Source: Pseudomonadota bacterium (GTDB lineage: Bacteria > Myxococcota > JACRCW01 > JAFGSX01). From it: a DNA stretch of 64,000 nt. The notes beneath the pieces are model-generated. The model was given only the letters and a program-made list of their open reading frames with translations, ran no database searches and was not told the origin of the DNA. The translations under genes were made by a program, and so were the position numbers. This document shows, piece after piece, positions 6,792 through 38,864 of this stretch; within the stretch, counting starts at the first letter, position 1, and each line of letters opens with the position of its first letter. Location of the stretch: the NCBI GenBank assembly GCA_043821645.1, contig JBDRCO010000072.1, forward strand, positions 1-64,000, given 5' to 3'.

Positions 6792-6793
6792 CC

Positions 6794-8284
6794 ATGTACT
6801 GCGCACGCCGAGTCTGGATCGCGACCGCTCTTGGCTTGCTGCTGCTGGCGACCCCATCCAGCGCTGCCGACGTGTGGAGCGATCCCTTCCCGGGCATCCG
6901 CTACCTGCACCGTTCGACCACGCAGCCCAAGGAGATCCATGCGCTGGTGGTGGACCTGACCCACCCTGCGATCTTCTTGCGCGCCACCAAGAGCGACGAG
7001 CGCGGTCGCACCGTGACCTCGTTCTCGAACCTGGTGGGGGCGGCGGCCGCGGTCAACGGCGACTTCTACAACACCGATGGATCCTACGACCCCGTGGGCC
7101 TGGCCATCGGTGAAGGCTTGCAGTGGACGGACGGCCAGGATTCCACCAGCCACAACTTCATGGCCTGTACCGCGCTCAACGACTGCCTCCTGGACATCTC
7201 GAGCAACGCGGTGACGCCGGATCCGTCGTGGTGGAGTGCGGTGGGCGGCAACACCGGCCTCATCTCCAGTGGCGTCAAGTGGACCAGCGCCCAGGACACG
7301 AGCTGCGGGTCCTTCTGCACCACCTTGCACCCGCGTACCGCCGCGGGCCTGTCCCAGGACGGCAATACCCTGATCCTCGTCGTGGTGGAGGGCCGACAGG
7401 ACCCCATCCTCGGCATGTCGCTGAGCAGCCTGGCCACGCTGATGGAGGAACTGGGGGCTTACAACGCCCTCAACCTCGATGGCGGAGGCTCCTCCTCCAT
7501 GGTGGTCGATGGATCCCGCGTCAGTGGCCGACCTGCCAACGAGCCCAGCGAGCGGAGCGTGGCCAATCACCTGGCCGTGATCTACGACGCTACCCGGGCC
7601 ACCAGTGGCCGCCTGGTGGGCTACGTGCGCGAGAACGACATCTACAACACCACGGGTCCCATCGCCGGAGCCCTGGTTCACCTGTCCACGGGCCAGAACG
7701 CCACAACCTCGGACACCGGCTTGTATGACTTTGCCGAGGTGGTCCCTGGCACGGTCACCGTCACCGCGAGCAAGCCGGGCTACCAGGACTCCAGCCTGGA
7801 CAAGGTCATCGAAGCAGGCATCACCAACTGGCGCTCCATGGCGCTCGTGGCAACGCCCCTCGACGCGGGAATATCAAGCGACGCCGCAACGGCGGCCGAC
7901 GCGACCTCTCCGCCGGTGGACAGCGGGTCAGGTGCGGCCGATGGCGCCACCGCAGTCGACGCCGGGACCACCCCCCGCGACGTCGGGACCTCGGCCAGCG
8001 ATGCCGGGCTCGGGCGAGACAGTGCGAGCACCGCAGTGGATTCTGGCGCTGACCCGGACACCAGGCAAAGCGATGCCACCCCGGCGTCCGATCTGGGCAG
8101 CAGCCCGGTCGAGGATTCGGGAGTGCTGGTGCTCGACGTGCCGCCCCGTGAACCAGACGACAACGTCGCCACGGCCGGGGGATGTTACTGCGCCGGCGGA
8201 CGCGGTCCGCAGCCAGCGGGGATGCGATGGCTGGGTCTCGTACTCGTGGCCTTGTGGCGGCGTGCTCGCTTCAGGAGCCTGTGA
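6794..8284 (+). CDS. Secreted phosphodiester glycosidase (NAGPA/DUF2233 family) with a carboxypeptidase-regulatory-like domain and MYXO-CTERM
   Basis: Signal peptide; AAVNGDFY, HPRTAAG, VVEGRQ, ALNLDGGGSSSM, ERSVAN; DAG-rich linker; GGCYC...WLGLVLVALWRRAR tail; start ATG 6794 after GAGG. Confidence 0.85.
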   Translation: MYCARRVWIATALGLLLLATPSSAADVWSDPFPGIRYLHRSTTQPKEIHALVVDLTHPAIFLRATKSDERGRTVTSFSNLVGAAAAVNGDFYNTDGSYDPVGLAIGEGLQWTDGQDSTSHNFMACTALNDCLLDISSNAVTPDPSWWSAVGGNTGLISSGVKWTSAQDTSCGSFCTTLHPRTAAGLSQDGNTLILVVVEGRQDPILGMSLSSLATLMEELGAYNALNLDGGGSSSMVVDGSRVSGRPANEPSERSVANHLAVIYDATRATSGRLVGYVRENDIYNTTGPIAGALVHLSTGQNATTSDTGLYDFAEVVPGTVTVTASKPGYQDSSLDKVIEAGITNWRSMALVATPLDAGISSDAATAADATSPPVDSGSGAADGATAVDAGTTPRDVGTSASDAGLGRDSASTAVDSGADPDTRQSDATPASDLGSSPVEDSGVLVLDVPPREPDDNVATAGGCYCAGGRGPQPAGMRWLGLVLVALWRRARFRSL

Positions 8285-24504: not shown

Positions 24505-25788
24505 TCAGTAGCTCGGCTTGCGCCGCGCCACACTGAGCCACACGCCGACGCCGAGCATCACAGTGAGCACCGACGATCCTCCGTAGGACACCAGCGGCAG
24601 CGTCACTCCCACCACCGGCATGAGCCCGGTGACCATGCCCACGTTGACCAGCATCTGCCAGAACACCACACCCGCAACGCCGATGGCGAGCAGGGCGCTG
24701 AAGCGATCGTGAGCACCCGCCGCGATGCGGATGCCCTTGACCAGCAGCAGGGCGAACAGCACCAGGAGGACCATGGCTCCGAACAGACCCCACTCCTCGG
24801 CCAGCACCGAGAAGGCGAAGTCGGTGTGGTTCTCGGGCAGGAAGGACAGCTGCGTCTGCGTGCCCTCCATGAAGCCCTTGCCCTGCACACCACCGGAGCC
24901 GATGGCGATCATGGACTGGTTGGCGTGGTAGCCGGCGCCCAGAGCGTCCGCCTCGGGGTTGAGGAAGGTCAGCACGCGCTGCTTCTGGTACTCCTTGAGC
25001 ACCTTGAACCAGGCCACCACCGCCCCGGCCACGCCAGCCACGGCCATCACCCCCAGCGAGCGGGCGCGCACACCCACGAACAGCACGATGGTGCCCGCGA
25101 TGGCGAGCACGATCAGGGTGGTGCCCAGATCCGGCTCGACCAGGATCAACACTGCCGGCGCCGCCATCAAGTCCATGGGCGCCACCCACACTTGCCGCGC
25201 CCAGCCCAGGCGTGCCGCGCGCAGAAACGACACCGCGCACCACAGCACGGTGACGATGACGAGCACGACGCGCAGCAGGGTGCTCCAGCCTGGAGATCCA
25301 GGAATCGCCACCTCCTCGAAGCGCAGCACCAGCACCGCAACCAGGGCCAGGGGCCGGCTCGGGTTGAGCGGCCGTACCAGGTCCACAAGACTCAAGGTCT
25401 GCCCGGGCTTGTAGCGCGCCATGTAACGCGCCATGGCGAGCACCATGGCCATCTTCATCAGCTCCGAGGGCTGCAGGTTGAACGCCCCGAAGCCTATCCA
25501 GCGCTGCGACCCCTTGATGGTGGTGCCCGCCACCAGCACCATCAGCAGCAAACCGCACACCACAAGGTAGATGGGGTAGGCCAGCCGCTCGTACCACGAG
25601 GTATCCAGCGCAGCCAGGCCCAGGGCCACCACCAGCCCCACCGCGACGTAGCCCATCTGGAAGTACTGCACGCCGGGGCGCGTGGCCTGCGAGGCAGAGA
25701 ACAGGTTGACCACGCCAACGGCGCCGACCGCCAGCACCAGCACCAGCAGTTCCCTGTCGAGGCTAGCAAAGAAGGCTCGCGGGTTCAC
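24505..25788 (-). CDS. rodA: Rod shape-determining SEDS glycosyltransferase RodA
   Basis: GSQRWI, QPSELMK, EPDLGT, IAIGSGG, FLPENHTDF, EEWG, LPLVSYGGSS. Confidence 0.96.
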   Translation of the reverse strand: MNPRAFFASLDRELLVLVLAVGAVGVVNLFSASQATRPGVQYFQMGYVAVGLVVALGLAALDTSWYERLAYPIYLVVCGLLLMVLVAGTTIKGSQRWIGFGAFNLQPSELMKMAMVLAMARYMARYKPGQTLSLVDLVRPLNPSRPLALVAVLVLRFEEVAIPGSPGWSTLLRVVLVIVTVLWCAVSFLRAARLGWARQVWVAPMDLMAAPAVLILVEPDLGTTLIVLAIAGTIVLFVGVRARSLGVMAVAGVAGAVVAWFKVLKEYQKQRVLTFLNPEADALGAGYHANQSMIAIGSGGVQGKGFMEGTQTQLSFLPENHTDFAFSVLAEEWGLFGAMVLLVLFALLLVKGIRIAAGAHDRFSALLAIGVAGVVFWQMLVNVGMVTGLMPVVGVTLPLVSYGGSSVLTVMLGVGVWLSVARRKPSY

Positions 25789-28028
25789 GGTCGCACCTGC
25801 TGCGGAGCATATTCCACGACGCGAACCTCGGGTGAATCGGCGCCCGGGCTGCGCTCGAGAGCACCGAGTTCCCGACTTCGCACGCGCTCGAAGTACGCGC
25901 GGATGACGTTGCCGGCGATGGGGGCCGCCTCGCTCCCACCATGACCCGAGTGCTCGTTGATGACAGCCACCGCGATCTCCGGATCGTCGGCGGGTGCGTA
26001 GGCTGCGAACCAGGCGTGGTCGCGCTCCCAGTAGTCGAGCTCGTGCAATTTTTTGATCGTCTCACCCATCTTGACGACCTGGGCGGTGCCGGTCTTGCCC
26101 GCCAGCGCGACCCCCGAGTTGCGCATCCACTCGGCGAGCCCCGCAGGTTCCCTGCGCCAGAACAGACCGTACGCCGTCCCTCCTTGTTCCAGCACCGCGG
26201 ACAACCCACCCTGGATGGCCTGGAGAAAGGCGGGGTCCACAGGCACACGCCAGCGCACGGCCGGGTCGAAGTGGTGGATCACGTTGCCCTCGTGATCGCG
26301 AATCTCCCGCACCAGCTGCGGCGCATACAGGGTCCCGCCGTTGCCGATGGCGGCATAGGCCAGGGCCAGCTGCAGCGGTGTCACCGAGATGTCCCCCTGA
26401 CCGATGCTATTGTTGACGACGTAGCCCTTCTGGTAGCCGTCGGGACGTCGCTCGTAGTAAGGGCGATCGGCAATCAGCCCCGGCACCTCGTGCCGCAGAT
26501 CGATGCCGCTGAGCGAGCCAAAACCCAGCAGGTGCGCGGCCTCGGCCAGGGCATCGATGCCGGCGTCGAAACCCACGGTGTAGAAGAAGACGTCACAGGA
26601 TTTCTGGATGGCCCGGTGCAGCTCCACCGATCCATGGCCGCCCAGGTTCCAGCAGCGCCAGACCGCGCGACCAAGCCGGAATGCACCGGGGCACGTGATG
26701 TGGCGACGGGTATCGAGCACGCCTGCCCGGGCACCCGCCACCGCCGTCACCACCTTGAAGGTCGAGCCCGGCGGGTACTGCTGCTGGATGGCCTTGTTGA
26801 TCCAGGGCTGCAAACGATCCGTGTCCAGGCGCCGCTTCTCCTCGGGCGAGATCTTGCCGCTGACCATGTTGGGGTCGTAGGCGGGCACGGACGCCATGGC
26901 CAGGATGAAGCCCGTCTTGGCCTCGACCGCGACCACCGCCCCGGCACGTCCCTCGATCTCGGCGAAGGTGTGCTCGGCCACCTGCTGCATCTCGGCGTCG
27001 ATGGATAGCACGAGGCTGTTGCCTGGCTGCGGTGACTCGCCCATGTCGTCACCCAGCAACTCGGCGGCGCGGGCATCGTCCATGCGCCGACCCATGGCAT
27101 CGACGACCACGCGTTCGACACCATCAATGCCCCGGAGTTCACGCTCGAAGGAACGCTCGAGCCCGGCCCGGCCGACCACGTCACCCATGCGGTAGCCGTC
27201 CTCGCGCAGCTGCTTGAGTTCCTCGCGACCCACCTCGTTGATGTAGCCAAGCACGTGCGCGCCCAGGCTCGCCATGCGGTAGCGCCGTCGCTGGGAGTGC
27301 TGCACATCGACGCCGGGCAGTTCGAACAGGCTGGCGCGGGTGTCCACGCGCACGAAGGCGTCCCAGGACACATCCCGGGCTACACGGATGGGCAGAAAGC
27401 GATCCAGTCCATGCGCCTCTTGCATGTCCTGACGAACCTCGTCGAGGGCCTCGGAGGGAACCCCCAGGGCCTCGGCCAAGCGCTTGAGCACGAGGTGCTG
27501 ACTCGGAAACTCGTCGGGCAAGATGAGAACACGCTGGCAGCGTGGACAAGCCGGGTCCGGCTCGAAGAGGATGCCGGGCAAGCGCTCGGCCTCGACGTAG
27601 CGGAGCAGTTCACCGGCGCTCGCCGGCGCCACCTGTTCCGCCAGGACGATGGGAGCGACTTGCTGTGCGCGCTGGGCAGCCAGGATGGCCTGGTCGAGCT
27701 CCAGCAGACGGTCGCGCGCGATACCAAGGCGCAGCCCGAGGGGACGCAGGGTCTTGAAGGAGTCCGGAACGAAGGCGGGGGTCAGGTACACGTCCTGGGC
27801 CGGACGGTTGTCGACGAGAACACGGCCGGCCCGGTCCAGAATGGAGCCGCGGTCGTGGGTGGCGCGACGCAGCTGCACGAAGTTGCTCTCGCTCTTGATG
27901 CGGAACTCGTCGCCCCGGACCACCTGCAGGTAGTACAGGCGCGCGATCAGCACCACGATGGCTGTCACCACCGCCGACGCGGTGAGCACGAATCGCAGGG
28001 GGCCAAAGGGAGGCTGATCGGAGCGCAT
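25785..28028 (-). CDS. mrdA: Penicillin-binding protein 2
   Basis: N-terminal TM, RGSILDR, GRAGLE, GSTFK (SxxK), SCD, KTGTAQ, DHAWF; lies between mreD and rodA. Confidence 0.95.
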   Translation of the reverse strand: MRSDQPPFGPLRFVLTASAVVTAIVVLIARLYYLQVVRGDEFRIKSESNFVQLRRATHDRGSILDRAGRVLVDNRPAQDVYLTPAFVPDSFKTLRPLGLRLGIARDRLLELDQAILAAQRAQQVAPIVLAEQVAPASAGELLRYVEAERLPGILFEPDPACPRCQRVLILPDEFPSQHLVLKRLAEALGVPSEALDEVRQDMQEAHGLDRFLPIRVARDVSWDAFVRVDTRASLFELPGVDVQHSQRRRYRMASLGAHVLGYINEVGREELKQLREDGYRMGDVVGRAGLERSFERELRGIDGVERVVVDAMGRRMDDARAAELLGDDMGESPQPGNSLVLSIDAEMQQVAEHTFAEIEGRAGAVVAVEAKTGFILAMASVPAYDPNMVSGKISPEEKRRLDTDRLQPWINKAIQQQYPPGSTFKVVTAVAGARAGVLDTRRHITCPGAFRLGRAVWRCWNLGGHGSVELHRAIQKSCDVFFYTVGFDAGIDALAEAAHLLGFGSLSGIDLRHEVPGLIADRPYYERRPDGYQKGYVVNNSIGQGDISVTPLQLALAYAAIGNGGTLYAPQLVREIRDHEGNVIHHFDPAVRWRVPVDPAFLQAIQGGLSAVLEQGGTAYGLFWRREPAGLAEWMRNSGVALAGKTGTAQVVKMGETIKKLHELDYWERDHAWFAAYAPADDPEIAVAVINEHSGHGGSEAAPIAGNVIRAYFERVRSRELGALERSPGADSPEVRVVEYAPQQVRP

Positions 28029-28540
28029 CACGGGTGCGCCTTCCATCCTTCGAGGGTGTCGTCCGCCAGCCGTCCATACAGGCGCTCGAGCAAAAACCAC
28101 AGGGGCACGGCGATGAGCCCGTCGAAGATCAGGGCCACGAGCTGGGTTCCGAGTCCCGCAACCCGCGCTCCCGCATCGCCCACCAGGGCCAGCAGCGCCG
28201 CGACCAGCAGCCGCATTCCGGCCGAGAGGACGAGCGCCAGAGGCAGGGCCGCGGCGCCGCGGTGAACACCCAGGATCTCGGACAGCGCACGCGCCAGCAG
28301 GTACACGATGGTGAAGGCCAGCATGTGAAGACCGGGTGGGGCTCCGGCCATCAGGTCGGTGCCGAGCCCGACCGCGCTTGCCCCCAGGGCTCCGGCCAGG
28401 GGGTCCAGGCGCACCGCCGTAAAGGTCAGAACCGCGACCGCGGGCTCGAGCCGCAGATCCTCGAACTGGAGCAGTGCGGCCAGCGCCGTGCACACCGCCT
28501 GGGCGAGGAGCGCGACCAGCAAGGGCAGCAGGGTCTTCAC
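28028..28540 (-). CDS. mreD: Rod shape-determining protein MreD
   Basis: Polytopic hydrophobic protein with GLGTDL...GLHML; lies between mreC and mrdA with overlapping start/stop codons. Confidence 0.85.
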   Translation of the reverse strand: MKTLLPLLVALLAQAVCTALAALLQFEDLRLEPAVAVLTFTAVRLDPLAGALGASAVGLGTDLMAGAPPGLHMLAFTIVYLLARALSEILGVHRGAAALPLALVLSAGMRLLVAALLALVGDAGARVAGLGTQLVALIFDGLIAVPLWFLLERLYGRLADDTLEGWKAHP

Positions 28541-29697
28541 CGTCGGTCCTCGGCTCGCCCCGCATCGCGCGACGCGGTTGTCGGTGGGCGTGAGGTGGGC
28601 GTGCCCGTGTCCCGGCGGTGCGGTGTCGTCGGGGACAGTGCGGGATCCACACGAGGCCGACCACTGTCGGCGGGAGGAATGGCCGGAGCAGATGCGGGAG
28701 CCACCGCGGGCACCGGGGCACGCACGGCGGGCCGCGTCGCAGCACCCGGCGCCTCCGCCGGCGTCGGGCGTGGCCGCCCCACGGAGACCACATCCGGCGC
28801 GGTCGCGTCCATGCCGCCAGCGTCGTCGGCGACGCCCGGGTTCCCACGCGTCCCTCCGAGTTCGGGCCAGGTCACCTCGTCGGGAGACGTGATGAGGACA
28901 ATCACCTCCTCGAGCCGCGAGAACACGACGCGGGGTTCGACCAGAGCATCGAGATAGAGCCCCATGCGCGGGCGCGTCACCTCGGCCACGCGGCCCACCG
29001 GAATGCCCTTGGGAAAGGTGCCGTCCAGACCCGAGGTCACCAGGACGTCATCCACGAACAGCTCCAGCGTCCGATCCACGGCATCCAGCCGACAGCGCCC
29101 CGCGGCTCCGCGGAGCACGCCTCGCGTCCGGCTGCGCTCGGCCATCACATCCAGGCGCATGCCGGCGTCGACGAGCAGGAGCACATCGGCGTATTCTCGT
29201 GACGCCACCACGACACGTCCCACCACGCCATCGGCGGTCACCACCCCGGCGCGACGCTGCACGCCATCGCGTGTGCCGCGATCGATACGCACATTTCGAT
29301 AGTTGGGGCTCTCGCCGAAGCCGATCACCCGCGCCACCACGCTTCGCGTGCCCGGCAGGCTTCGCTCGAGGTCGAGCAGGCGTCGGAGGCGTCGGTTCTC
29401 ACGGCCGGCCTCGTCCAGCACCGCACGCTCGCGCTGCATCCGCTGGAGCTGCTGGCGCAGCTCCACATTCTCATCGGCCACTCCCACCAGCCACAGGTAG
29501 GCATCACCGGTCCGTGCCACGGCGCGCCAGGTGCCTGTGACCGCGGCCTGGATGGGGCCGGTGACCCAGTGCACGAGGCGGGTCAGGCGCCCCGAGGACT
29601 CGCGACCACTCGCACTACCGTAGAGAAAGAACAAAGGAAGCAGCAGCAAGGCCGCGATGACGAGGAGGCTCCGGTAGCGGCGCAGCAGTTCCCGCAT
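28537..29697 (-). CDS. mreC: Rod shape-determining protein MreC with a long Pro/Ala-rich C-terminal tail
   Basis: TM, coiled coil ENRRLRRLL, IDRG..DGV, GVVGRV, VTSGLDGTFPKGIPVG. Confidence 0.93.
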   Translation of the reverse strand: MRELLRRYRSLLVIAALLLLPLFFLYGSASGRESSGRLTRLVHWVTGPIQAAVTGTWRAVARTGDAYLWLVGVADENVELRQQLQRMQRERAVLDEAGRENRRLRRLLDLERSLPGTRSVVARVIGFGESPNYRNVRIDRGTRDGVQRRAGVVTADGVVGRVVVASREYADVLLLVDAGMRLDVMAERSRTRGVLRGAAGRCRLDAVDRTLELFVDDVLVTSGLDGTFPKGIPVGRVAEVTRPRMGLYLDALVEPRVVFSRLEEVIVLITSPDEVTWPELGGTRGNPGVADDAGGMDATAPDVVSVGRPRPTPAEAPGAATRPAVRAPVPAVAPASAPAIPPADSGRPRVDPALSPTTPHRRDTGTPTSRPPTTASRDAGRAEDRR

Positions 29698-29703
29698 GGC
29701 AGA

Positions 29704-30735
29704 TCAGGCGATGGCGACGTGGCGAAGCAGGACCTCGTTGTCCAGCAGCTTGCCGCCTCCCAGCACGACCACGGTCAAGGGATCCTCGGCGACGATCACG
29801 GGCAGTCCGGTCTCATTGCTGAGCAAGCGATCCAGCCCATGCAGCAGCGCACCTCCGCCGGTGAGCACGATGCCGCGGTCCACGATGTCAGCCGCCAGCT
29901 CGGGAGGTGTGCGCTCGAGCGACACGCGCAGGGCCTCGACGATGGCGTTGACGGGCTCGGCGAGGGCTTCGCGCACCTCGTCCGCGTTGATCTCCACGGT
30001 TTTGGGGATACCCGCGACCAGGTCCCGGCCCTTGACCTCCATGGTGAGCAGGTCATCGGAGGGATAGGCGCTGCCGATGCGCATCTTGATCAGCTCGGCC
30101 GTCCGCGGCCCGATCAGCAGGCTGTACTTGCGCTTGACGTGGGCGACGATGGAGTCGTCCATCTTGTCGCCCGCCACGCGCACCGAGCGCGAGAACACGA
30201 TGCCGCCGAGACTGATCACCGCGACCTCGGTGGTGCCACCCCCCACGTCGACGATCATGGACCCGGAGGGCTCCTCCACCGGGAGTCCGGCTCCGATACC
30301 CGCGGCCATGGGTTCCTCGACCAGGATCACCTCGCGCGCCCCGGCCGAGGCTGCCGCCTCGCGAACCGCGCGCTTCTCGACCTCTGTCACCCCCACCGGC
30401 ATGCAGCAGACGATGCGTGGCCGCACCAGGGTGCCGCGGCTGGTGGCCTTCTGGATGAAGTAGCGCAGCATGTGCGAGGTGGCGTCGAAGTCGGCGATCA
30501 CGCCGTCCTTGATGGGCCTCACCGCGCGGATACTGCCGGGCGTTCGCCCCAGCATGTCCTTGGCTTCCTTGCCCACGGCGACGACAGCCGACTCGCGGCC
30601 ACTGCCTTCGCGCACGGCCACCACCGAGGGTTCGTTGACCACGATGCCCTTGCCGCGGACAAAAACCAGGGTATTGGCCGTTCCCAGGTCAATGGCCAGG
30701 TCCGAAGAGGTCACGCGTGTCAACCAGCTGAACAT
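29704..30735 (-). CDS. mreB: Actin-like rod shape protein MreB (alternative start 30744)
   Basis: [56 protein letters not shown]. Confidence 0.97.
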
Positions 30736-30862
30736 CGTGAGCATCACCACGGCGCATCGGGGCGCGCCCAGTTTTGTCTCCGCCAGGACCCGGGCCCGGC
30801 GAGGTGCGACCTGTTCGGGAGCTTGAGCGGTGAGCCCCAAGTCCTGCGATCGAACGGCTTTT

Positions 30863-30891
30863 CTCATACCACCGGCGAAACCCCGGAGCAA
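30863..30891 (-). promoter_or_regulatory. Putative sigma70-type promoter of the mreB operon
   Basis: Minus strand TTGCTC-17 nt-TATGAG, with TG extension. Confidence 0.4.
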
Positions 30892-31005
30892 CGAGAACCC
30901 CATGCCTTGACAGGGTTTTTTCTTCCGCGCTGCGCGTCAGGCGGATTCTTCTCGGGCCGAGGCAGATGGCAGTGCCGGGAACAGCCGGGACCCGTTTGAG
31001 GCCTC

Positions 31006-34000
31006 TCAGCCCTCGATGTAGGCGAAGTACTGGTAGGCGACCTCGAACAGACTGCCGGCGGGTGGCAGGGTCTGCTGGTCGCCAAAGAACAGGATGCCAT
31101 TGGCTCCAGGCTCGTAGTCGAAGCCTTCATCGCGGCTTCGCGCCGAGGGCACGAACACCCCGGTGCGCTGCACCTTGACCGCCAGCGAGTTGGATACGGG
31201 CTGCCGCAGCAGGGGCGAGCGGCTGGCCGCACCGGCCGCTCCGATGAGGATGGCGGTGATGGTCTCGGCGAGGTTGGGATTGCAGATGCTTCCGGTGGCA
31301 CCGCCGGTCCCCTCGGCGACCTCGATGTACGCGTTTCCGGGTCGGGCCACGCCCAGCCCCACGCGCTGGCAGCCCCAGGGTCGAGGACCCACGATGCCGT
31401 ACACCTGGGCGCCCTGGGCGCGATAGTCCTCGGCGTAGCTCGCGACGCTGCGCAGGTTGATCGAATCCTCGTCGCTGACGAAGATGACCACCAGTGCTGC
31501 GTTGCTTCGCAACTGTCGGGCAGGATCGCTACTGGCGCGGGCTGCCGCGATGGCGCGCAGTCCGTACTCCAGCCCCATCTCGCGCCCGTTGCCGTTGATA
31601 CCGACGCGCACATTGTCGGCGAAGGTAGTCGGGTCGGTGGTGAACCCGCCGCCCTGCAATACCTCGCCGTCGGTGGTGGCCACACCCAGCCGGAAATCGA
31701 GCCCACTGGCCACCAGCGCGTCGTAGAAGGCACCCGTAGCGACGGACAGGGCTTGCTGCTCCTCCTGCATGCTGGCCGAGTTGTCGATGATCCACAGGAA
31801 GTCACTGCGCAGCTCGGGCAGGGTCTTGACCTCGCACTCCTTGCGCAGGGTATAGCCGGTCATGCCGACGTGGGTGGCGTTGGTCAGGTCGCCCATCAGC
31901 AGCTGGTTGTGGACGTAGCTGTCGGCCGGTGTGCTGGCCACCACCACCAGCACGCTCTCGGCGGAGAACAGGTACAGCACGTGCACCATGTGCTCGGTGG
32001 CGACGATGGCGGTGGGCAGGGACGTGGGTAACCCCTGGATGGTCCCGGGGAGCAGGTGGGACAGCGCTGCGAGAGCAGAACGTCGGACATAGGACGACGT
32101 CACGGGCGCCGGGAAGATCAGGCGCTGCACCGTGGCCACGCCCGCCCGGCCGAACAGGTCGTGAAACACACGACGGTGCGCCTCGATGCGCTCTGCCACC
32201 TGAGGCGCGGTGGGCAGCTGGTCCAGGGCCTGCACCTCGTTGAGCGCGAAGGCCGAGGCCATGCGCTCATCGCCCGGGTCCATGCCCGCTGGCATGGGCT
32301 GTCGCAGCACGAAACCGAGCACGTCGTCGGCCAGATCGTCGAGGGCAAAGGCCTCGGCACCCTCGAGCGCGATGCGGTCCGTCACCGGCGGTACCGCGAA
32401 GGGCAGCTCCGTCCCCGGCACCTGGGTCCCGATCTGGGTGATCACGGAACTCACCGGGCATGCCGTGGTGGCGAGGTCGCCCAGCACCAGATCGCGCGGC
32501 GTCTGGTCCCAGCCCACCGAGGCGTCACTCCGGGTTCCGAGGTCCGGGCTCCCTCCCTCGAGGGTGTTCATCCCTGCGTCATCCTCGGGCTCGACCACTC
32601 CTGGCACCAGCAGACTGCTATCGCAGGCAGGGACCAGGCTCAGGCTTGCGGCCAGACCCACGACGGCACAGAGCACCAGTACACCGCGCTTGCGGCGCCG
32701 CCAGGCCACGAGGACGCCCAGCAGACTGCCGACGATCAGCCAGCCTCGGGGCATACCCGCGGGCCCCGCGCTGCAGGTGCAGCCGAGGCGCAGCACACCC
32801 TTGGCATCCGGGAGCCCGGCCTCGACGCCTGCGTCCACCAAGATGACGAGTCCACCTCCGTCGGGCACGCTGATGTCCACATCGACGCCGCCAGCATCCT
32901 CGACCCCGGCGTCCTCCTCGGTCACGCAGACCGTGAAGCCCTGGGGATCCAGGTCCACGCTGTGATCGCAGTCATTGTCGAGGAGGTCACAGATCTCGGG
33001 CGCGCCCGGGTACACGGTGGGCTCGCTGTCGTCGCAATCACCGTCGCAGTTGGTGAAGCCGTCGGCGTCCGCATCGAAACAGGTGGCGCACATGTTGAAA
33101 GCGCCCAGCATCGCGTCGACGTAGCCGTCGCAGTTGTTGTCGATGCGATCGCAGGCTTCGCGTGCGTGGGGGTTGATGGTGTTGTCGGCATCGTTGCAGT
33201 CCCCGCAGTTGGGGCTGAAGCCATCGTTATCCAGGTCCTCCTCGCCCTCATCCACCTGGCCATCGCAATCGTCGTCGATGCCGTTACGGGGAACCTCGAG
33301 CCGGTCCGGGTTCACATCCGGATCGGTATCATCACAGTCACCCAGACAGGACACCCAGCGGTCGCCGTCTTCGTCGAAGCCCTCGTCTGCCGGTCCGTCG
33401 CAGTTATTGTCCTGGCCGTCGCAGATCTCGGGCGCCGCCTCGATCGTGCCAAAGGCGCCATGAACCGCGGCATTGTGGTCGTTGCAATCACCCTGGCAGG
33501 TGGTCACGCCATCGCCATCGATGTCGGTGTCCTCGTCGATGAGGCCATTGCAGTCGTTGTCGATGTTGTCGCCACAGACCTCGCGTCGCAGAGGACTTCG
33601 CAGCGGGTCCGTGTCGTCGCAATCTCCGGCGCAGACCGTGGCATGGTCACCGTCGGCGTCGAAGCCCTCGTCGACGGTCCCGTCGCAGTTGTTGTCAAAA
33701 CCGTCGCAGACCTCCGCGTGACCAGGGTTGATCTCGGCGAAGCGGTCATCGCAGTCGCCCTGGCCTATGGTGTAGCCGTCGCGATCCTCGTCCACGTCCT
33801 CGTCGATGGCTCCGTCGCAGTCATCGTCGATGCCGTTGTTCCAGATCTCGGCGAAGCCCGGACCCACCCGGGAGTCGCGGTCATTGCAGTCGCCGTCGCA
33901 GTTGCGGTAGCCGTCCTGATCCAGATCGTGGCAGGCGCCTCCCTCGCAGGCCCCCGCCTCGTCCACGACGCCGTCGCAGTTGTTGTCCTGGCAGTCGCAG

Positions 34001-37000
34001 ATCTCCACGGCACCGGGGCGATTGTGAGGATCGCCGTCCTGGCAGTCGCACTGATCCGGGGGCAAGAAGGGACAGGCGCCGCAGTCCCGGTAGCCGTCGC
34101 GGTCCAGGTCGAAGTCCTCGTCGGTGTCGCCATCGCAGTCGTTGTCCTCATCGTCGCAGGCCTCGACGTCGGGTAACACCTGTCCCACACAATCGCCCAC
34201 CGCAACGCCACCGCGGCACTCGGCCAGACCTGCCACACACAGGCCCACGCCGAGCGTGCTGCGAGGGCCGGTGTAGCAGGAGGTCTCGACACCATCGATG
34301 TCGCCGTCGCAGTCGTTGTCCTTGCCGTCGCAGATCTCGAGGTTGCCGGCGTAGATCTCGGGGTCGGTGTCATTGCAGTCACCGCCACAGGTGGTCACGC
34401 CGTCACCATCCAGATCGTGTCCCTCGTCGACCACGCCGTCGCAGTCATTGTCATAGCCATCGCAGTCATCGACGGCGATCGGGGTCACCTCGTCGCTGCA
34501 GATCGCCGAGAAGCTGCCCCCCTCGCAGCGATTCGCACCGCCCTGGCACAGGCCCACCCCCTCGGTCTCCGGGGGCTGGCCGGTGTAGCAGGCGCGGGTC
34601 AGCACGCCACCCAGACCATCGTCGTCGGGGGTCCCGTTGCAGTCGTTGTCAGCGCCGTCACAGATCTCGGTACCCCCTGGCTTGACGTCGATGCGTGTGT
34701 CATCGCAGTCGCAGGACATGGCATTGAGAAAGGCGCACAGGGCACAGGAGCGCGCGCCGTCGCCATCCGCGTCAAAGGTCCCCTCGTCGATGGTGCCGTC
34801 GCAGTCGTTGTCCTTGTTGTCGCACAGGGTCTCGTCCTGCGCCGGGTCGTGCGCGGGCAGCACCAGCGCGCCGCCGCAGGCGGACCAGCTGCCTCCGGCC
34901 TGGCAGCTCTGGGTGCCGCTGTGGCAGAGACCGCGGGGCGCGCAGCTGGCGGCATGCCCCGGGCAGTTCCCGGTGTAGGTCGCCGCGGTGACGTTGGTGC
35001 CTTCGAAGCACACGCGGTCCGCCACGCCGGCGTTGGGTGAACCATCGCAATTGCGATCCACAGCGTCGCAGGTCTCGGTGGCGCCAGGCTTGATGGTCGC
35101 GTCGGCATCGTTGCAGTCGCAGGCCGGCGCCGCGGGAGCACTGCAGGTCCCGCACGCGCGCACGGTGTCGTTGTCGGCATCGATGATCAGTCCATCGTCG
35201 GGGGTTCCGTCGCAGTCCTCATCCTGACCATTGCAGGTGACCTCGGGATCGGCCGGAAGGCCGACCGGGACCACCTCGCCCGCGCAGGCACCCCAGTTGG
35301 CAGGATCGCTGACGTTGGTGTTGATGGCCTGACAGGTCTGGGTGCCGCCGTGACACAGCCCGATGCCGTTGGTTCCCCCGGGTCCCGTGTAGCAGGTCCG
35401 GCTGAGGTTTTCGTCGACGCTGTTGTCGCAGTCGTTGTCCAGGGTATCGCAGGCCTCGACCCTGGCAGGACGGTTGCACCAGGCGCCGTACTGCACGTTG
35501 CTGTTGTCGTTGCACTCCGTCGCCGCGCAGGCCGGGACCTGATCGCCATCGGCGTCGGCGAAGCCATTCCAGGGTGCGCCATCGCAGTCCTGATCCACGC
35601 AGTCGCACAGCTCGGGTGCTCCGGGATAGATCGCGTTGTTGTTGTCGTTGCAGTCGCAGGGCGTGACCGTGCACCCCGTGCAGCTCAGGAAACCATCGCC
35701 ATCCACGTCGAAGGTCTCGTCGATGAGCGTGTCGCAGTCATTGTCCTGGCCATCGCAGATCTCGGGATTGCCCGGGAAGTTGTCGGGATCCGAATCATCG
35801 CAGTCGCAGTTGGCCGCGCCCAGGTAGGTCGTGCAGCCGTCGCCAGCAGCCACGTCGCAGCGCCCGACCCCGTCGCCATCGAGATCGAAGCCCTCGTTGT
35901 TGGTGCCGTCGCAATCGTTGTCCGTGGCGTCACAGACCTCGATGCTGTCCCCGGTGGAGTCCGAACATTGCTGCAGGCCGGTGACACACGCGTAGGTGCC
36001 CTCGCGACACTGATCGCTGTCCGGACCGTCGCAGGGCTGGTTGTACCAGGTCTCGCCGCTGCCATCTGCCGAGGCGGGATTGCAGTCATCGTTGGTGTTG
36101 TTGTTGCACAGGTCCACGACGTGGATGCTCTCGTTGCACTGCACACCGCTGCCATTGGAGCGGCAGCCCCAGGTGCCGTTGACGCACAGATCGGCGTCCG
36201 TGCCGTCACAGGGCTGGGTCAGCTCGGGCCAGTCCTCGTTGTTGGTGCCGTCGCAGTCGTTGTCCACCGCATCGCAGCGCTCGACCGTGTTGCTCGTGTT
36301 GTCGCTGCACCCCTGGCCCCACACGCTGCTCCCGAGATCCACGCACACGGCCGTTCCCTCGGCGCACAGATCTGTGTCCGGTCCGTCGCAGGCCACACCG
36401 AACCAGGCCTCGACGCTGCCATCGGCCGTGGCCGGGTTGCAGTCGTCGTCCACGCCGTTGCAGACATCGGGATCGGCATCGTTGGGATCCGAGCAGGCCT
36501 GGCTGCCGGCGCTGCAGGAGTAGGTGCCTTCGGGGCAGAGGTCGGCATCGGTGCCGTCGCAGGGCTGGTTGTACCAGGCCTCGGCGGACCCATCGGCGGT
36601 GGCCGGATTGCAGTCCTCGTCCTGGCCATTGCAGCGATCGACGAAGCTCAGGCTCTCGTTGCAGCGCGTGCCCGTGCCATTGGCCAGACAGACCACGGTG
36701 CCATTACTGCACAGATCGCTGTCCGTGCCATCGCAGCTGCTCCCCAGGCTGGGCCAGTCCTCGTTGTTGCTGCCGTCGCAGTCATTGTCGATGGCGTCAC
36801 ACAGCTCGACGCTGTTGCCCGTGGTGTCGCTGCAGGTCTGAGCGGACCCGGTACATTGAAAGACCCCCTCGGCGCACAGATCGGTGTCCGGGCCATCACA
36901 GGCCTGGCCGTACCAGGCCTCGGCCGAACCATTCGCGGTCGCGGGATTGCAGTCGTCGTCGATGGCGTTGCACAGGTCAGGGTCCGCGTCGTTGGGATCG

Positions 37001-37506
37001 GAGCAGGTCTGGACACCACCCGAGCACGCGTAGGTGCCCTCGTTGCAGAGGTCGGCATCGGTGCCATCGCAGGGTTGATTGAGCCAGGCCTCCCCCGAAC
37101 CGTCGGGTGTCGCCGGGTCACAGTCGTCATTGAGGCCGTTACACAGGTCCGGATCGGCGTCGTTGGGATCGTCGCAGACCTTCAGGGCGCCCGTGCACTG
37201 GAACAGACCTTCGGGGCAGATATCGGTGTCTGTGCCATCACAGGACTGGTGATACCAGCTCTCGGCGCTGCCGTCGGCGGTGGCAGGACTGCAGTCATTG
37301 TCCTTTCCATCGCAGATCTCGGGCCGGGCGCCGCCGACGCACGAGGCGCCTCGCACCGTGTTATCCGAGTCGTCGCAATCTCCCTGCAGGCAGCTGCAAC
37401 CGTCACCATCGCCGTCGGTGTCATTGCACTGCGCCCGCGCTGTGGTCGGCACCAGCAGCATCACACCGGCGAGCAAGGCCAGGCTCAGAAATTGTAGTGT
37501 GCGCAT
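31006..37506 (-). CDS. Giant (2166 aa) surface protein: signal peptide, Cys/Asp-rich repeats (MopE-related metal-binding motif), internal MYXO-CTERM plus lipoprotein signal, C-terminal VWA domain
   Basis: Start MRTLQFLSLALL overlaps the upstream TGA. Many DCxDxDP..PG..E.CD..DNxCDG..DE repeats; internal GCTC..WLIVGSLLGVLVAWRRRKRGVLVLCAVVGLAASLSLVPAC; MIDAS motif DNSAS and IFVSDED. Confidence 0.88.
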   Translation of the reverse strand: MRTLQFLSLALLAGVMLLVPTTARAQCNDTDGDGDGCSCLQGDCDDSDNTVRGASCVGGARPEICDGKDNDCSPATADGSAESWYHQSCDGTDTDICPEGLFQCTGALKVCDDPNDADPDLCNGLNDDCDPATPDGSGEAWLNQPCDGTDADLCNEGTYACSGGVQTCSDPNDADPDLCNAIDDDCNPATANGSAEAWYGQACDGPDTDLCAEGVFQCTGSAQTCSDTTGNSVELCDAIDNDCDGSNNEDWPSLGSSCDGTDSDLCSNGTVVCLANGTGTRCNESLSFVDRCNGQDEDCNPATADGSAEAWYNQPCDGTDADLCPEGTYSCSAGSQACSDPNDADPDVCNGVDDDCNPATADGSVEAWFGVACDGPDTDLCAEGTAVCVDLGSSVWGQGCSDNTSNTVERCDAVDNDCDGTNNEDWPELTQPCDGTDADLCVNGTWGCRSNGSGVQCNESIHVVDLCNNNTNDDCNPASADGSGETWYNQPCDGPDSDQCREGTYACVTGLQQCSDSTGDSIEVCDATDNDCDGTNNEGFDLDGDGVGRCDVAAGDGCTTYLGAANCDCDDSDPDNFPGNPEICDGQDNDCDTLIDETFDVDGDGFLSCTGCTVTPCDCNDNNNAIYPGAPELCDCVDQDCDGAPWNGFADADGDQVPACAATECNDNSNVQYGAWCNRPARVEACDTLDNDCDNSVDENLSRTCYTGPGGTNGIGLCHGGTQTCQAINTNVSDPANWGACAGEVVPVGLPADPEVTCNGQDEDCDGTPDDGLIIDADNDTVRACGTCSAPAAPACDCNDADATIKPGATETCDAVDRNCDGSPNAGVADRVCFEGTNVTAATYTGNCPGHAASCAPRGLCHSGTQSCQAGGSWSACGGALVLPAHDPAQDETLCDNKDNDCDGTIDEGTFDADGDGARSCALCAFLNAMSCDCDDTRIDVKPGGTEICDGADNDCNGTPDDDGLGGVLTRACYTGQPPETEGVGLCQGGANRCEGGSFSAICSDEVTPIAVDDCDGYDNDCDGVVDEGHDLDGDGVTTCGGDCNDTDPEIYAGNLEICDGKDNDCDGDIDGVETSCYTGPRSTLGVGLCVAGLAECRGGVAVGDCVGQVLPDVEACDDEDNDCDGDTDEDFDLDRDGYRDCGACPFLPPDQCDCQDGDPHNRPGAVEICDCQDNNCDGVVDEAGACEGGACHDLDQDGYRNCDGDCNDRDSRVGPGFAEIWNNGIDDDCDGAIDEDVDEDRDGYTIGQGDCDDRFAEINPGHAEVCDGFDNNCDGTVDEGFDADGDHATVCAGDCDDTDPLRSPLRREVCGDNIDNDCNGLIDEDTDIDGDGVTTCQGDCNDHNAAVHGAFGTIEAAPEICDGQDNNCDGPADEGFDEDGDRWVSCLGDCDDTDPDVNPDRLEVPRNGIDDDCDGQVDEGEEDLDNDGFSPNCGDCNDADNTINPHAREACDRIDNNCDGYVDAMLGAFNMCATCFDADADGFTNCDGDCDDSEPTVYPGAPEICDLLDNDCDHSVDLDPQGFTVCVTEEDAGVEDAGGVDVDISVPDGGGLVILVDAGVEAGLPDAKGVLRLGCTCSAGPAGMPRGWLIVGSLLGVLVAWRRRKRGVLVLCAVVGLAASLSLVPACDSSLLVPGVVEPEDDAGMNTLEGGSPDLGTRSDASVGWDQTPRDLVLGDLATTACPVSSVITQIGTQVPGTELPFAVPPVTDRIALEGAEAFALDDLADDVLGFVLRQPMPAGMDPGDERMASAFALNEVQALDQLPTAPQVAERIEAHRRVFHDLFGRAGVATVQRLIFPAPVTSSYVRRSALAALSHLLPGTIQGLPTSLPTAIVATEHMVHVLYLFSAESVLVVVASTPADSYVHNQLLMGDLTNATHVGMTGYTLRKECEVKTLPELRSDFLWIIDNSASMQEEQQALSVATGAFYDALVASGLDFRLGVATTDGEVLQGGGFTTDPTTFADNVRVGINGNGREMGLEYGLRAIAAARASSDPARQLRSNAALVVIFVSDEDSINLRSVASYAEDYRAQGAQVYGIVGPRPWGCQRVGLGVARPGNAYIEVAEGTGGATGSICNPNLAETITAILIGAAGAASRSPLLRQPVSNSLAVKVQRTGVFVPSARSRDEGFDYEPGANGILFFGDQQTLPPAGSLFEVAYQYFAYIEG

Positions 37507-38864
37507 CAGTAGTACCCTCCCACCTCGAAGCCGAGTGTGGTCAGCCGCTCGTCGAGGGAGAAGCGGCTGGACTGCCAGCCGCCGAAGCTCGCGGTGCGCA
37601 GGCCGGCCCGCGCGAAGAACAGGGGCGCCGCGTGCAGGACCAGCCACGCCTCCCCTTGCCAGGCGGGGCGCAGCATGATGCCGCCGCCCTGCCCCACGGG
37701 TTGGCGGGCCGCCAGCACTCCCTCGACGGTGAGGAGCGGTGGCCACAGAGGTTGCACCGCGCGAGCGTGCACTTCTGCAAACAGGTAGCGCGTGCTCGGC
37801 GCAGGCAGGCAACAACCAATCTCGCTACGCTGCCAGCCCCAGCCGCCGCCGAGACCGAGCCAGGGCGCGTACGCATGATGGAACAGCATGCGCCGGTAGC
37901 TGCCGCGCAGGGTCAGATCGTCGTCGTCGATTCGGACCTCACCGCCCTCGTAGCTGCCGCTGTAAAGACCCCGGCGATAGGAGGCATCCAGCACCAGGTC
38001 GGCGAGGGGCGAGCGATTGAGCGCGGGGATGAGGCGCAGTGGCAGAACCGACGCGCTCACGCTCCACCCGGGCAGGGCTCCCGATTCGATGGGGATGACC
38101 CTGCGCAGCTGGCTGCCACCGAGATCGACCTGGCGCGAGCCCACGGAGAAGCCCGTCGCCAGGAACAGCGCAGGCACCCGCTTGCGCGCTCGTTGCAGCG
38201 AGGCCAGAGCGTCAGCCTCCCGCTGTTCCTCCTCGAGGATCTCGTCACTCGGCGACACCACCGCGGCGCGACTGTCACCGCGGGCCGTGCGCTCCTGCCA
38301 GGGCTGCGATGAGGCCGGACTCACCTCGGCCACGCCCACGTCGATGGCGACAAGCGGGGGGTCTGCATGCTGCAAGAGCACGCGGGCTTTCTGGTCGATG
38401 AGGCTCGCGATGCGCTCGGCGTCCTTGTCCTCGATGCGGTCTGCCTTGATGCCGCGGATGGGGATACTCCGCGTGGCCTTCTGACCCAGGTTCGAGTACA
38501 CCAGAACCGTGAGTCCGCGCTTGGACGCGGACAGGATGATCGCGCGCTCGGCACCGACCGCCGCGGCCAGGCGCGCCACCCCGTCGGGCATCAGCAACTG
38601 GTTGGGCCACACCCTGGTGCGTTTCTGGGCTTCGACCACGTCGGCGTGGTCGACCACGCGCTCACCAAAGCGCGCGCGCAGCGCCTTGACCAGACGCGGA
38701 TGACTATCGAGGGCCTGCTCGCGAGCCACCCCAACCACCGGCGCGACCAGGATTCGTGGAGCTGGGGCCCCCTCGTCGGCCGCGTGGAGCGGCTGCGCCA
38801 GCAGGACAGCCAGCGCCATCCCCAGCAGGAGGCTGGTCCCGAACTCTCTCTCGACGCGGAGCAT
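37506..38864 (-). CDS. Secreted protein with a probable C-terminal outer-membrane beta-barrel
   Basis: Signal peptide; alternating hydrophobic beta-strands; ends LGFEVGGYY (aromatic terminal residue); SD GAGGTG and TATAAT (38897-38892) upstream. Confidence 0.65.
   Translation of the reverse strand: MLRVEREFGTSLLLGMALAVLLAQPLHAADEGAPAPRILVAPVVGVAREQALDSHPRLVKALRARFGERVVDHADVVEAQKRTRVWPNQLLMPDGVARLAAAVGAERAIILSASKRGLTVLVYSNLGQKATRSIPIRGIKADRIEDKDAERIASLIDQKARVLLQHADPPLVAIDVGVAEVSPASSQPWQERTARGDSRAAVVSPSDEILEEEQREADALASLQRARKRVPALFLATGFSVGSRQVDLGGSQLRRVIPIESGALPGWSVSASVLPLRLIPALNRSPLADLVLDASYRRGLYSGSYEGGEVRIDDDDLTLRGSYRRMLFHHAYAPWLGLGGGWGWQRSEIGCCLPAPSTRYLFAEVHARAVQPLWPPLLTVEGVLAARQPVGQGGGIMLRPAWQGEAWLVLHAAPLFFARAGLRTASFGGWQSSRFSLDERLTTLGFEVGGYY

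Follow-up and report, generated by a model that had tools for sequence, protein, structure and literature searches.

Can one bacterial gene give rise to two separately anchored envelope proteins? This question is raised by a minus-strand gene in the stretch of DNA analysed here, hereafter the window, which comprises 64,000 nucleotides (positions 1 to 64,000 of contig JBDRCO010000072.1 in assembly GCA_043821645.1, from a genome of the Myxococcota). The open reading frame (ORF) occupies 31006..37815 on the minus strand, and translation from the Met at 37506 yields a protein of 2166 amino acids (aa), identical to one on record as a single gene product in the protein collection. Inside this chain, a sorting tag of the MYXO-CTERM type runs in frame into a lipoprotein-type export signal; the chain around this junction reads LRLGCTCSAGPAGMPRGWLIVGSLLGVLVAWRRRKRGVLVLCAVVGLAASLSLVPACDSS, and residues 1575-1628 read GCTCSAGPAGMPRGWLIVGSLLGVLVAWRRRKRGVLVLCAVVGLAASLSLVPAC. 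Judged by its sequence, the gene is a real, ancient and conserved fusion that plausibly codes for an envelope polyprotein. We regard the fused architecture itself as practically certain, and the full statement, in which the fused precursor would be cut at both sites into two lipid-anchored proteins, as moderately probable, the cleavage being something we infer from the signals.

The anatomy of the junction is that of two complete signals placed back to back. The first has the order of a MYXO-CTERM tag, with GCTC at residues 1575-1578, a hydrophobic helix and then RRRKR. The second consists of the same RRRKR, 20 hydrophobic residues and the lipobox LVPA-C, and thus has the parts of a lipoprotein signal, yet it starts at residue 1603 and not at the N-terminus. 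Between RRRKR and Cys 1628 there are no stop codons and no Met, and 538 residues follow Cys 1628. An earlier sequence-only reading of this DNA had placed the first tag Cys (residue 1576) at 32781, RRRKR at 32700-32686 and the second Cys (residue 1628) at 32625, which the sequence ruler confirmed, and it had also been right, by translation, that no Met lies between RRRKR and that second Cys. The layout of the gene is as follows:

31006..37506, minus strand: whole gene, coding for the putative two-module precursor (2166 aa plus stop; same protein on record)
37432..37506, minus strand: N-terminal Sec-type signal peptide MRTLQFLSLALLAGVMLLVPTTARA, followed by QC (read by eye; database relatives start similarly)
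32785..37431, minus strand: N module of Cys/Asp-rich MopE-type repeats (PF11617), with a D/A/G-rich linker at its end
32773..32784, minus strand: MYXO-CTERM signature G-C-T-C, with Cys 1576 and Cys 1578 (translation; CxC invariant in a 6-sequence alignment)
32701..32745, minus strand: first hydrophobic helix GWLIVGSLLGVLVAW, residues 1588-1602, the predicted membrane span of the sorting tag (translation; AlphaFold helix)
32686..32700, minus strand: basic loop RRRKR, residues 1603-1607, predicted to be cytoplasmic (translation)
32626..32685, minus strand: second hydrophobic stretch GVLVLCAVVGLAASLSLVPA, residues 1608-1627, the putative h-region of the internal lipoprotein-type signal (translation; model helix)
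32623..32625, minus strand: lipobox Cys 1628, in the context LVPA-C-DS (invariant in 43/43 aligned sequences)
32464..32622, minus strand: disordered D/G/P-rich tether after the lipobox Cys, residues 1629-1681 (predicted local distance difference test score, pLDDT, below 50 for model residues 93-149)
31009..32463, minus strand: folded C module, residues 1682-2166, a beta-sandwich plus an integrin-beta-like VWA domain in which the DxSxS motif reads DNSAS (pLDDT mostly above 90)
roughly 31231-31809, minus strand: VWA part of the C module, within the folded region

The N module comprises about 1,550 aa, in which the Pfam motif PF11617 ('MopE') recurs in 16 stretches (E 7.3e-109). Its last 415 aa are 52-66% identical to those of 25 relatives, with the Cys and Asp residues invariant among the 26 sequences. 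The position of the tag that follows departs from what is normal for MYXO-CTERM, since 561 residues lie beyond the match to the TIGR03901 profile. Among the 77 TIGR03901 matches in the same genome, 66 end at most 12 aa before a stop codon, which makes the internal position exceptional there. Two neighbouring plus-strand genes of the window, at 4767-6791 and 6452-8284, carry terminal tails of the MYXO-CTERM type, GCGCHSASSGHSLVPWALALLLPWRRRRACSR and GGCYCAGGRGPQPAGMRWLGLVLVALWRRARFRSL respectively, as the sequence-only reading had stated; only the gene at 4767-6791 appears among the six-frame TIGR03901 matches.

The most telling evidence is the comparison with relatives. A profile of the junction and the C module was searched against 401 Myxococcota genomes and gave 47 strong places, namely the genome of the window (family f1), 13 of the 20 genomes of f6, 1 of 11 in f18 and 32 of 172 in f11. 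All 47 were read, and two of them end at contig ends before the junction, leaving 45 informative loci. The same in-frame, stop-free junction was found in 43 of these 45, spread over all four families, with a conserved order of CxC motif, helix, Arg-rich loop, second hydrophobic stretch and lipobox Cys. The anatomy put forward in the sequence-only reading, an internal MYXO-CTERM tag, a basic loop and a lipoprotein-type signal, is thus shared by other Myxococcota, with both Cys positions kept across the four families. Fused forms occur in genomes assembled into 1, 2 and 5 contigs, and 15 database proteins of 1712-2180 aa, each called independently as one gene and named 'hypothetical', 'MopE-related' or 'VWA domain-containing', are likewise fused. 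A contig search for related loci returned carriers that were all uncultured records of metagenome-assembled genomes, with no cultured host found. The two exceptions among the 45 loci are a copy with a frameshift in the junction (G390) and a copy split into two genes (G072). In the former (L150, G390:C154:28200-31800), the reading frame shifts after the Arg cluster and before the second hydrophobic stretch, and the helix of the tag is apparently shortened; this may be either an assembly slip or a decaying copy.

These counts bear directly on the simplest objection, that a lost stop codon or an indel, introduced by sequencing or assembly, has joined two neighbouring genes. The genome of the window is a draft of 140 contigs, and the frameshifted junction of G390 shows the kind of fault that such an explanation would call upon. 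The in-frame join is, however, shared by 43 of the 45 informative loci, which come from independent assemblies and include the genomes of few contigs mentioned above, and for this reason the junction is not an assembly artefact. Coverage of the region was judged from Logan contigs. Run X1, which may be the source sample, has a contig that crosses 32336-33100 without a single difference, while run X2, from another study, is exact at 32437-32626 and 32717-32947, matching both flanks of the junction; it leaves 32627-32716 uncovered and gives no evidence either way there. Runs X4 and X6 cover only 32300-32616, and the RNA runs listed contain almost nothing of the stretch. Continuous coverage across 32600-32800, which the sequence-only reading had suggested checking, is thus provided by X1 and only in part by X2. 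Taken with the family-wide count, an artefact has a nearly negligible probability.

The pattern of conservation within the junction is uneven. In an alignment of 6 sequences (A1), the only invariant columns are the Cys pair of CxC and the Leu and Cys of the lipobox (Leu-x-x-x-Cys). When 43 sequences are aligned, the lipobox Cys is invariant (43/43) within otherwise unconserved linkers, and the Cys residues of CxC are at least 90% conserved, with the split G072 row lacking them in that frame and G097 reading CSGC. The junction parser handled 41 of the 43 fused loci; the lipoboxes of the remaining two read STG-C and TTG-C. Among the 41 parsed orthologs the tag signature is CGC in 38, CTC in two and CSGC in one, and the residue at lipobox position -1 is Gly in 23, Ala in 11 and Ser in 5 (39/41 together), with one His and one Gln, the latter a mis-parse of FGACQC in L035. 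The loop between the hydrophobic stretches ranges from 4 to 43 aa (median 11) with a net charge of +2 to +7, and the second hydrophobic stretch from 11 to 23 aa (median 16), a length that would suit the h-region of a signal and would often be too short for a lasting membrane span. Both putative processing sites are, by this pattern, under selection across the four families. The sequence-only reading had further proposed that RRRKR doubles as the n-region of the second signal. This fits the window, where the loop is short, but does not hold generally: with loops of up to 43 aa, the basic patch is shared between both signals only where the loop is short.

The same segment can also be seen as a plain inner-membrane anchor, with the protein staying whole or being cut at one site only and carrying two large periplasmic domains. 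Two hydrophobic helices flanking a positive loop do resemble an ordinary membrane hairpin, and the AlphaFold2 model (43 sequences, mean pLDDT 80.7) places helices at model residues 55-72 (protein residues 1587-1604) and 77-91 as a hairpin pair. A plain anchor, however, gives no reason why Cys should be kept at the outer ends of both helices (43/43 for the lipobox and about 41/41 for the tag) while the helices themselves vary freely, nor does a second stretch of as few as 11 aa sit well with it. The weakness of the tag by profile and a few aberrant lipoboxes, which are set out below, speak in favour of such an uncut or singly cut protein; the lineage in which the gene is split speaks against an uncut one. 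On balance we consider a retained anchor unlikely, though to be taken seriously.

In the split lineage, represented by G072 for both modules and by the database protein P0024 for the C module, each of the two signals stands at a true chain end. The N module of G072 ends CGCGSSEARSSWWVTGLALALAFALRRRRS, directly followed by a stop codon, which turns the tag into a terminal MYXO-CTERM; the full tail up to the stop TGA reads VSCGCGSSEARSSWWVTGLALALAFALRRRRS. The downstream gene has a GTG start that overlaps this stop (GTGA), opens with KRFLVLLLPLAC and continues into the C module, and the Arg codons CGG AGG AGA of the upstream tail form the run GGAGGAG 7 nucleotides before the GTG. P0024 is a separate protein of 558 aa encoded on a 62.9-kb contig; it starts MRFASLLVLLPIAC, a canonical lipoprotein signal at a true N-terminus, and shares 74% identity with the C module of G072. 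A quick maximum-likelihood tree joins G072 and P0024 in a clade with a support of 100, nested within the fused f6 clade (80 and 93 at the nesting forks). The simplest reading of this topology is a single fission of a fused ancestor, retained in two diverged organisms. The sequence-only reading had held that homologs with a stop codon after RRRKR and a separately started downstream gene would expose the fusion as spurious. In only one lineage does a stop follow the Arg cluster, and there it reflects a fission derived within the fused clade; a fusion artefact is excluded for the family. An ordinary terminal tag and an ordinary N-terminal signal after the split are what is expected if both signals worked in the fused chain. 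Taken at the level of predicted signals, the lineage shows that either half is able to stand alone as a protein whose signals are of the ordinary terminal kind, and its use of ordinary cleavable signals counts against a protein that is never cut.

The overlapping GTG start of G072 also suggests a further possibility, that in fused genes most of the C module arises from a start codon inside the long gene, in which case the fusion would be irrelevant to its export. The gene in the window does contain GTG codons inside its second hydrophobic stretch, and in G072 a GTG start with the Shine-Dalgarno-like GGAGGAG drives the separate gene. A start at the GTG codons of the window would, however, leave no positive n-region, no Shine-Dalgarno-like run is seen in 32686-32720, and ribosomes translating the N module would read through in any case, there being no stop codon to halt them. 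Internal initiation as the main source of the C module is accordingly given a very low probability.

The reading that we prefer, cleavage of a fused precursor at both sites, can be set out as a sequence of steps. The Sec machinery would export the N module until the tag helix halts transfer, the Arg-rich loop thereby remaining in the cytoplasm. The second hydrophobic stretch would then re-initiate export as an internal signal, placing both large modules outside the inner membrane, linked by a helical hairpin. Lgt and LspA would lipidate Cys 1628 and cleave before it, turning the C module into an ordinary lipoprotein, while the MYXO-CTERM pathway would lipidate a Cys of CxC and myxosortase would remove the helix, freeing the N module with a C-terminal lipid anchor for surface display. 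The hairpin of about 50 aa would be discarded, which would leave two adhesin-type proteins, each with a lipid anchor, in a 1:1 ratio. The topological logic is that of bunyavirus Gn/Gc precursors, in which a stop-transfer helix and a cytoplasmic loop are followed by an internal signal that restarts export. There, host signal peptidase makes the cuts and no lipidation is involved, whereas the design in the window would use two bacterial lipid-dependent pathways. We know of no bacterial secreted polyprotein in which an end-of-protein sorting tag is set directly against a start-of-protein export signal.

Several observations weigh against double cleavage. For every family member the cuts are something that we infer, and all members come from uncultured organisms. 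The putative substrate of LspA and myxosortase sits mid-chain and not at a chain end. The tag, which the sequence-only reading had called a complete MYXO-CTERM, does match TIGR03901 at residues 1575-1605 and reaches 23.1 bits in a six-frame scan of the genome, above the cut-off of 20 bits, but it stays below that cut-off in the protein scans (17 bits for the full-length protein, 18.9 bits for a 634-aa piece). Across the family, TIGR03901 is matched at E <= 0.01 in only 18 of 43 members. The lipobox of the window protein has an unusual Pro at -2, and two relatives keep the lipobox Cys with a non-canonical residue at -1, namely His in G052 (L033) and Arg in P0003, the closest relative (59% identity); these two lipoboxes are probably not accepted by LspA. 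Judged on predicted sites, the His, the Arg and the Pro count against universal cleavage by LspA.

What the two products might be is clearest for the C module. In the AlphaFold2 model, model residues 150-634 form a confident domain, with disordered tethers at residues 1-50 and 93-149. A Foldseek search with the model returned integrin beta headpieces and ITIH1 (inter-alpha-inhibitor heavy chain 1) at E of about 1e-9 and probability 1.0, with template modelling (TM) scores of only 0.24-0.42 for these matches. [quoted passage not shown] All 43 members of the family are hit by the CglD model NF033765 (best E 1.3e-28); on the window protein it gives 77 bits over profile positions 575-690 of 1124. 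This lies far under its 400-bit cut-off, and the C module is for that reason not CglD itself. We regard it as a putative CglD-like, integrin-beta-like VWA lipoprotein, assigned by model and profile, and not as a CglD ortholog. A single member of the family has a match (E 0.0081) to NCBIfam NF058595, a model with the name 'lipo-invert putative C-terminal anchoring domain'. A complex prediction for the last 415 aa of the N module with the folded C module scored 0.01 against a mark of 0.32, a result that is uninformative on binding either way.

Passages of the preprint 10.1101/2023.10.19.562135 describe CglD, a gliding adhesin of Myxococcus xanthus, as a lipoprotein of the cell surface that combines a VWA domain with Ca-binding repeats and a Cys-rich stalk. 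The likeness to the window protein, as far as those passages describe CglD, lies in a VWA lipoprotein with a MIDAS-type DxSxS and an integrin-beta-like fold, together with Asp-rich and Cys-rich repeats. The difference is that CglD carries repeats and VWA domain in one chain, whereas in the window protein they stand on opposite sides of the hairpin. By analogy, the resemblance of the C module points to a role in adhesion or gliding.

How far the arrangement is new can be gauged against PMC11980579 (mBio 2025), passages of which describe internal MYXO-CTERM motifs as rare in ORFs and discuss MXAN_5598 of M. xanthus as a likely two-gene fusion of an adhesin, a tag and an outer-membrane (OM) beta-barrel with OmpA. 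The N part of MXAN_5598 is proposed there to be processed and surface-anchored, mid-chain function of C-terminal tags being cited. The same passages report that MrtX processed the TraA tag in Escherichia coli and raise Lgt as the lipidating enzyme of MYXO-CTERM. The claim of the sequence-only reading that no such system had been described was therefore too strong: as far as these passages go, an internal MYXO-CTERM and proposed processing of the part before it were already in print. MXAN_5598, as described there, shares with the window protein a mid-chain MYXO-CTERM that has a large adhesin-like N part before it and another exported module after it. It differs in what lies downstream, an OM beta-barrel with OmpA as opposed to a putative lipoprotein whose lipobox Cys follows at most 50 aa after the tag. 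In the passages of PMC11980579, the lone mention of a lipobox concerns a different point and not the coupling of tag and lipobox. The Haft preprint (10.1101/2023.06.07.544157) mentions neither internal or fused tags nor a lipobox, and a full-text literature search found no paper on an internal lipobox or internal lipoprotein signal. The finding is thus partly new, in that the internal tag is published, to judge from those passages, and no published account of its coupling to a lipobox was found.

Each signal taken singly resembles well-known ones. Terminal MYXO-CTERM proteins such as TraA have the same Cys signature, helix and Arg cluster as well as an N-terminal signal peptide, but the tag of the window protein has 561 residues after it and is borderline by hidden Markov model (17-23 bits). 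Lipoprotein signals handled by Lgt and LspA have the same positive n-region, h-region and [GAS]-Cys lipobox, and the split relatives carry such a signal at a true N-terminus; in the window protein, by contrast, residue 1603 is where it begins, and the tail of another sorting signal serves as its n-region. Should both cuts occur, a single gene would yield two lipid-anchored surface proteins in fixed proportion, and annotation as one 'hypothetical', 'MopE-related' or 'VWA' protein would hide two mature products. The 43 fused forms, the one split lineage and the three invariant Cys positions offer handles on substrate recognition by myxosortase and LspA. The family is also a natural substrate for asking whether Lgt lipidates MYXO-CTERM, the idea put forward in the cited passages of PMC11980579.

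Counterparts of the processing enzymes are encoded in the genome of the window, with three Lgt (PF01790) and two LspA (PF01252) matches above cut-off. The two LspA paralogs lie in tandem (G000:C118:155166-156337), and the three Lgt paralogs are scattered (C136, C49 and C123); the additional copies might matter for how unusual substrates are dealt with. A myxosortase-family gene is present as two pieces at contig ends, an N-terminal one at G000:C102:3-803 and a C-terminal one at G000:C26:59292-59549, which match MrtP at 112 and 81 bits (cut-off 250) and also MrtC and MrtX, the best matches being MrtP and MrtC. The pieces are probably one gene broken by assembly. The strongest CPBP match of the genome was rejected as a myxosortase candidate, being an ABC-permease/CPBP fusion.

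The gene lies 102 nucleotides upstream of mreB, which is followed by mreC, a PBP2-type transpeptidase gene and rodA on the same strand (24505-30903, minus). In none of the 40 other loci searched was mreB found within flanks of 1.5-3 kb, and the downstream genes differ among four relatives. A functional link to this rod-shape operon was dropped, given that the adjacency to mreB is seen, among these loci, in the window only and that the downstream genes of relatives vary.

A broader proposal, which we offer tentatively, is that the hairpin of tag plus signal is a general envelope-polyprotein device in bacteria. Two adjacent Cys residues at the outer face of the inner membrane would both be lipidated, possibly by the same Lgt-type enzyme, and myxosortase and LspA would excise the hairpin between them. 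In this family, one product would be a Cys-rich stalk that binds Ca and the other an integrin-beta-like VWA head; made in a 1:1 ratio, the two would act together as a two-chain adhesin. The window's own genome (G000) holds four further ORFs in which a MYXO-CTERM-type tag runs in frame into a second signal, at C31:24903-31532, C31:83657-89320, C106:52371-56618 and C113:201942-204371. As far as predicted signals go, these extra junctions support the generality of the tag-plus-signal design. In two of the four, a small YD-repeat-like module precedes a signal peptide and 1625-1938 aa. Another, an FG-GAP/Cys-rich protein, runs into the lipobox ILGMAC with only 71 aa beyond it, and the remaining one has a zinc-protease-like module ahead of a signal that ends in LPGLAQA and of 182 further aa.

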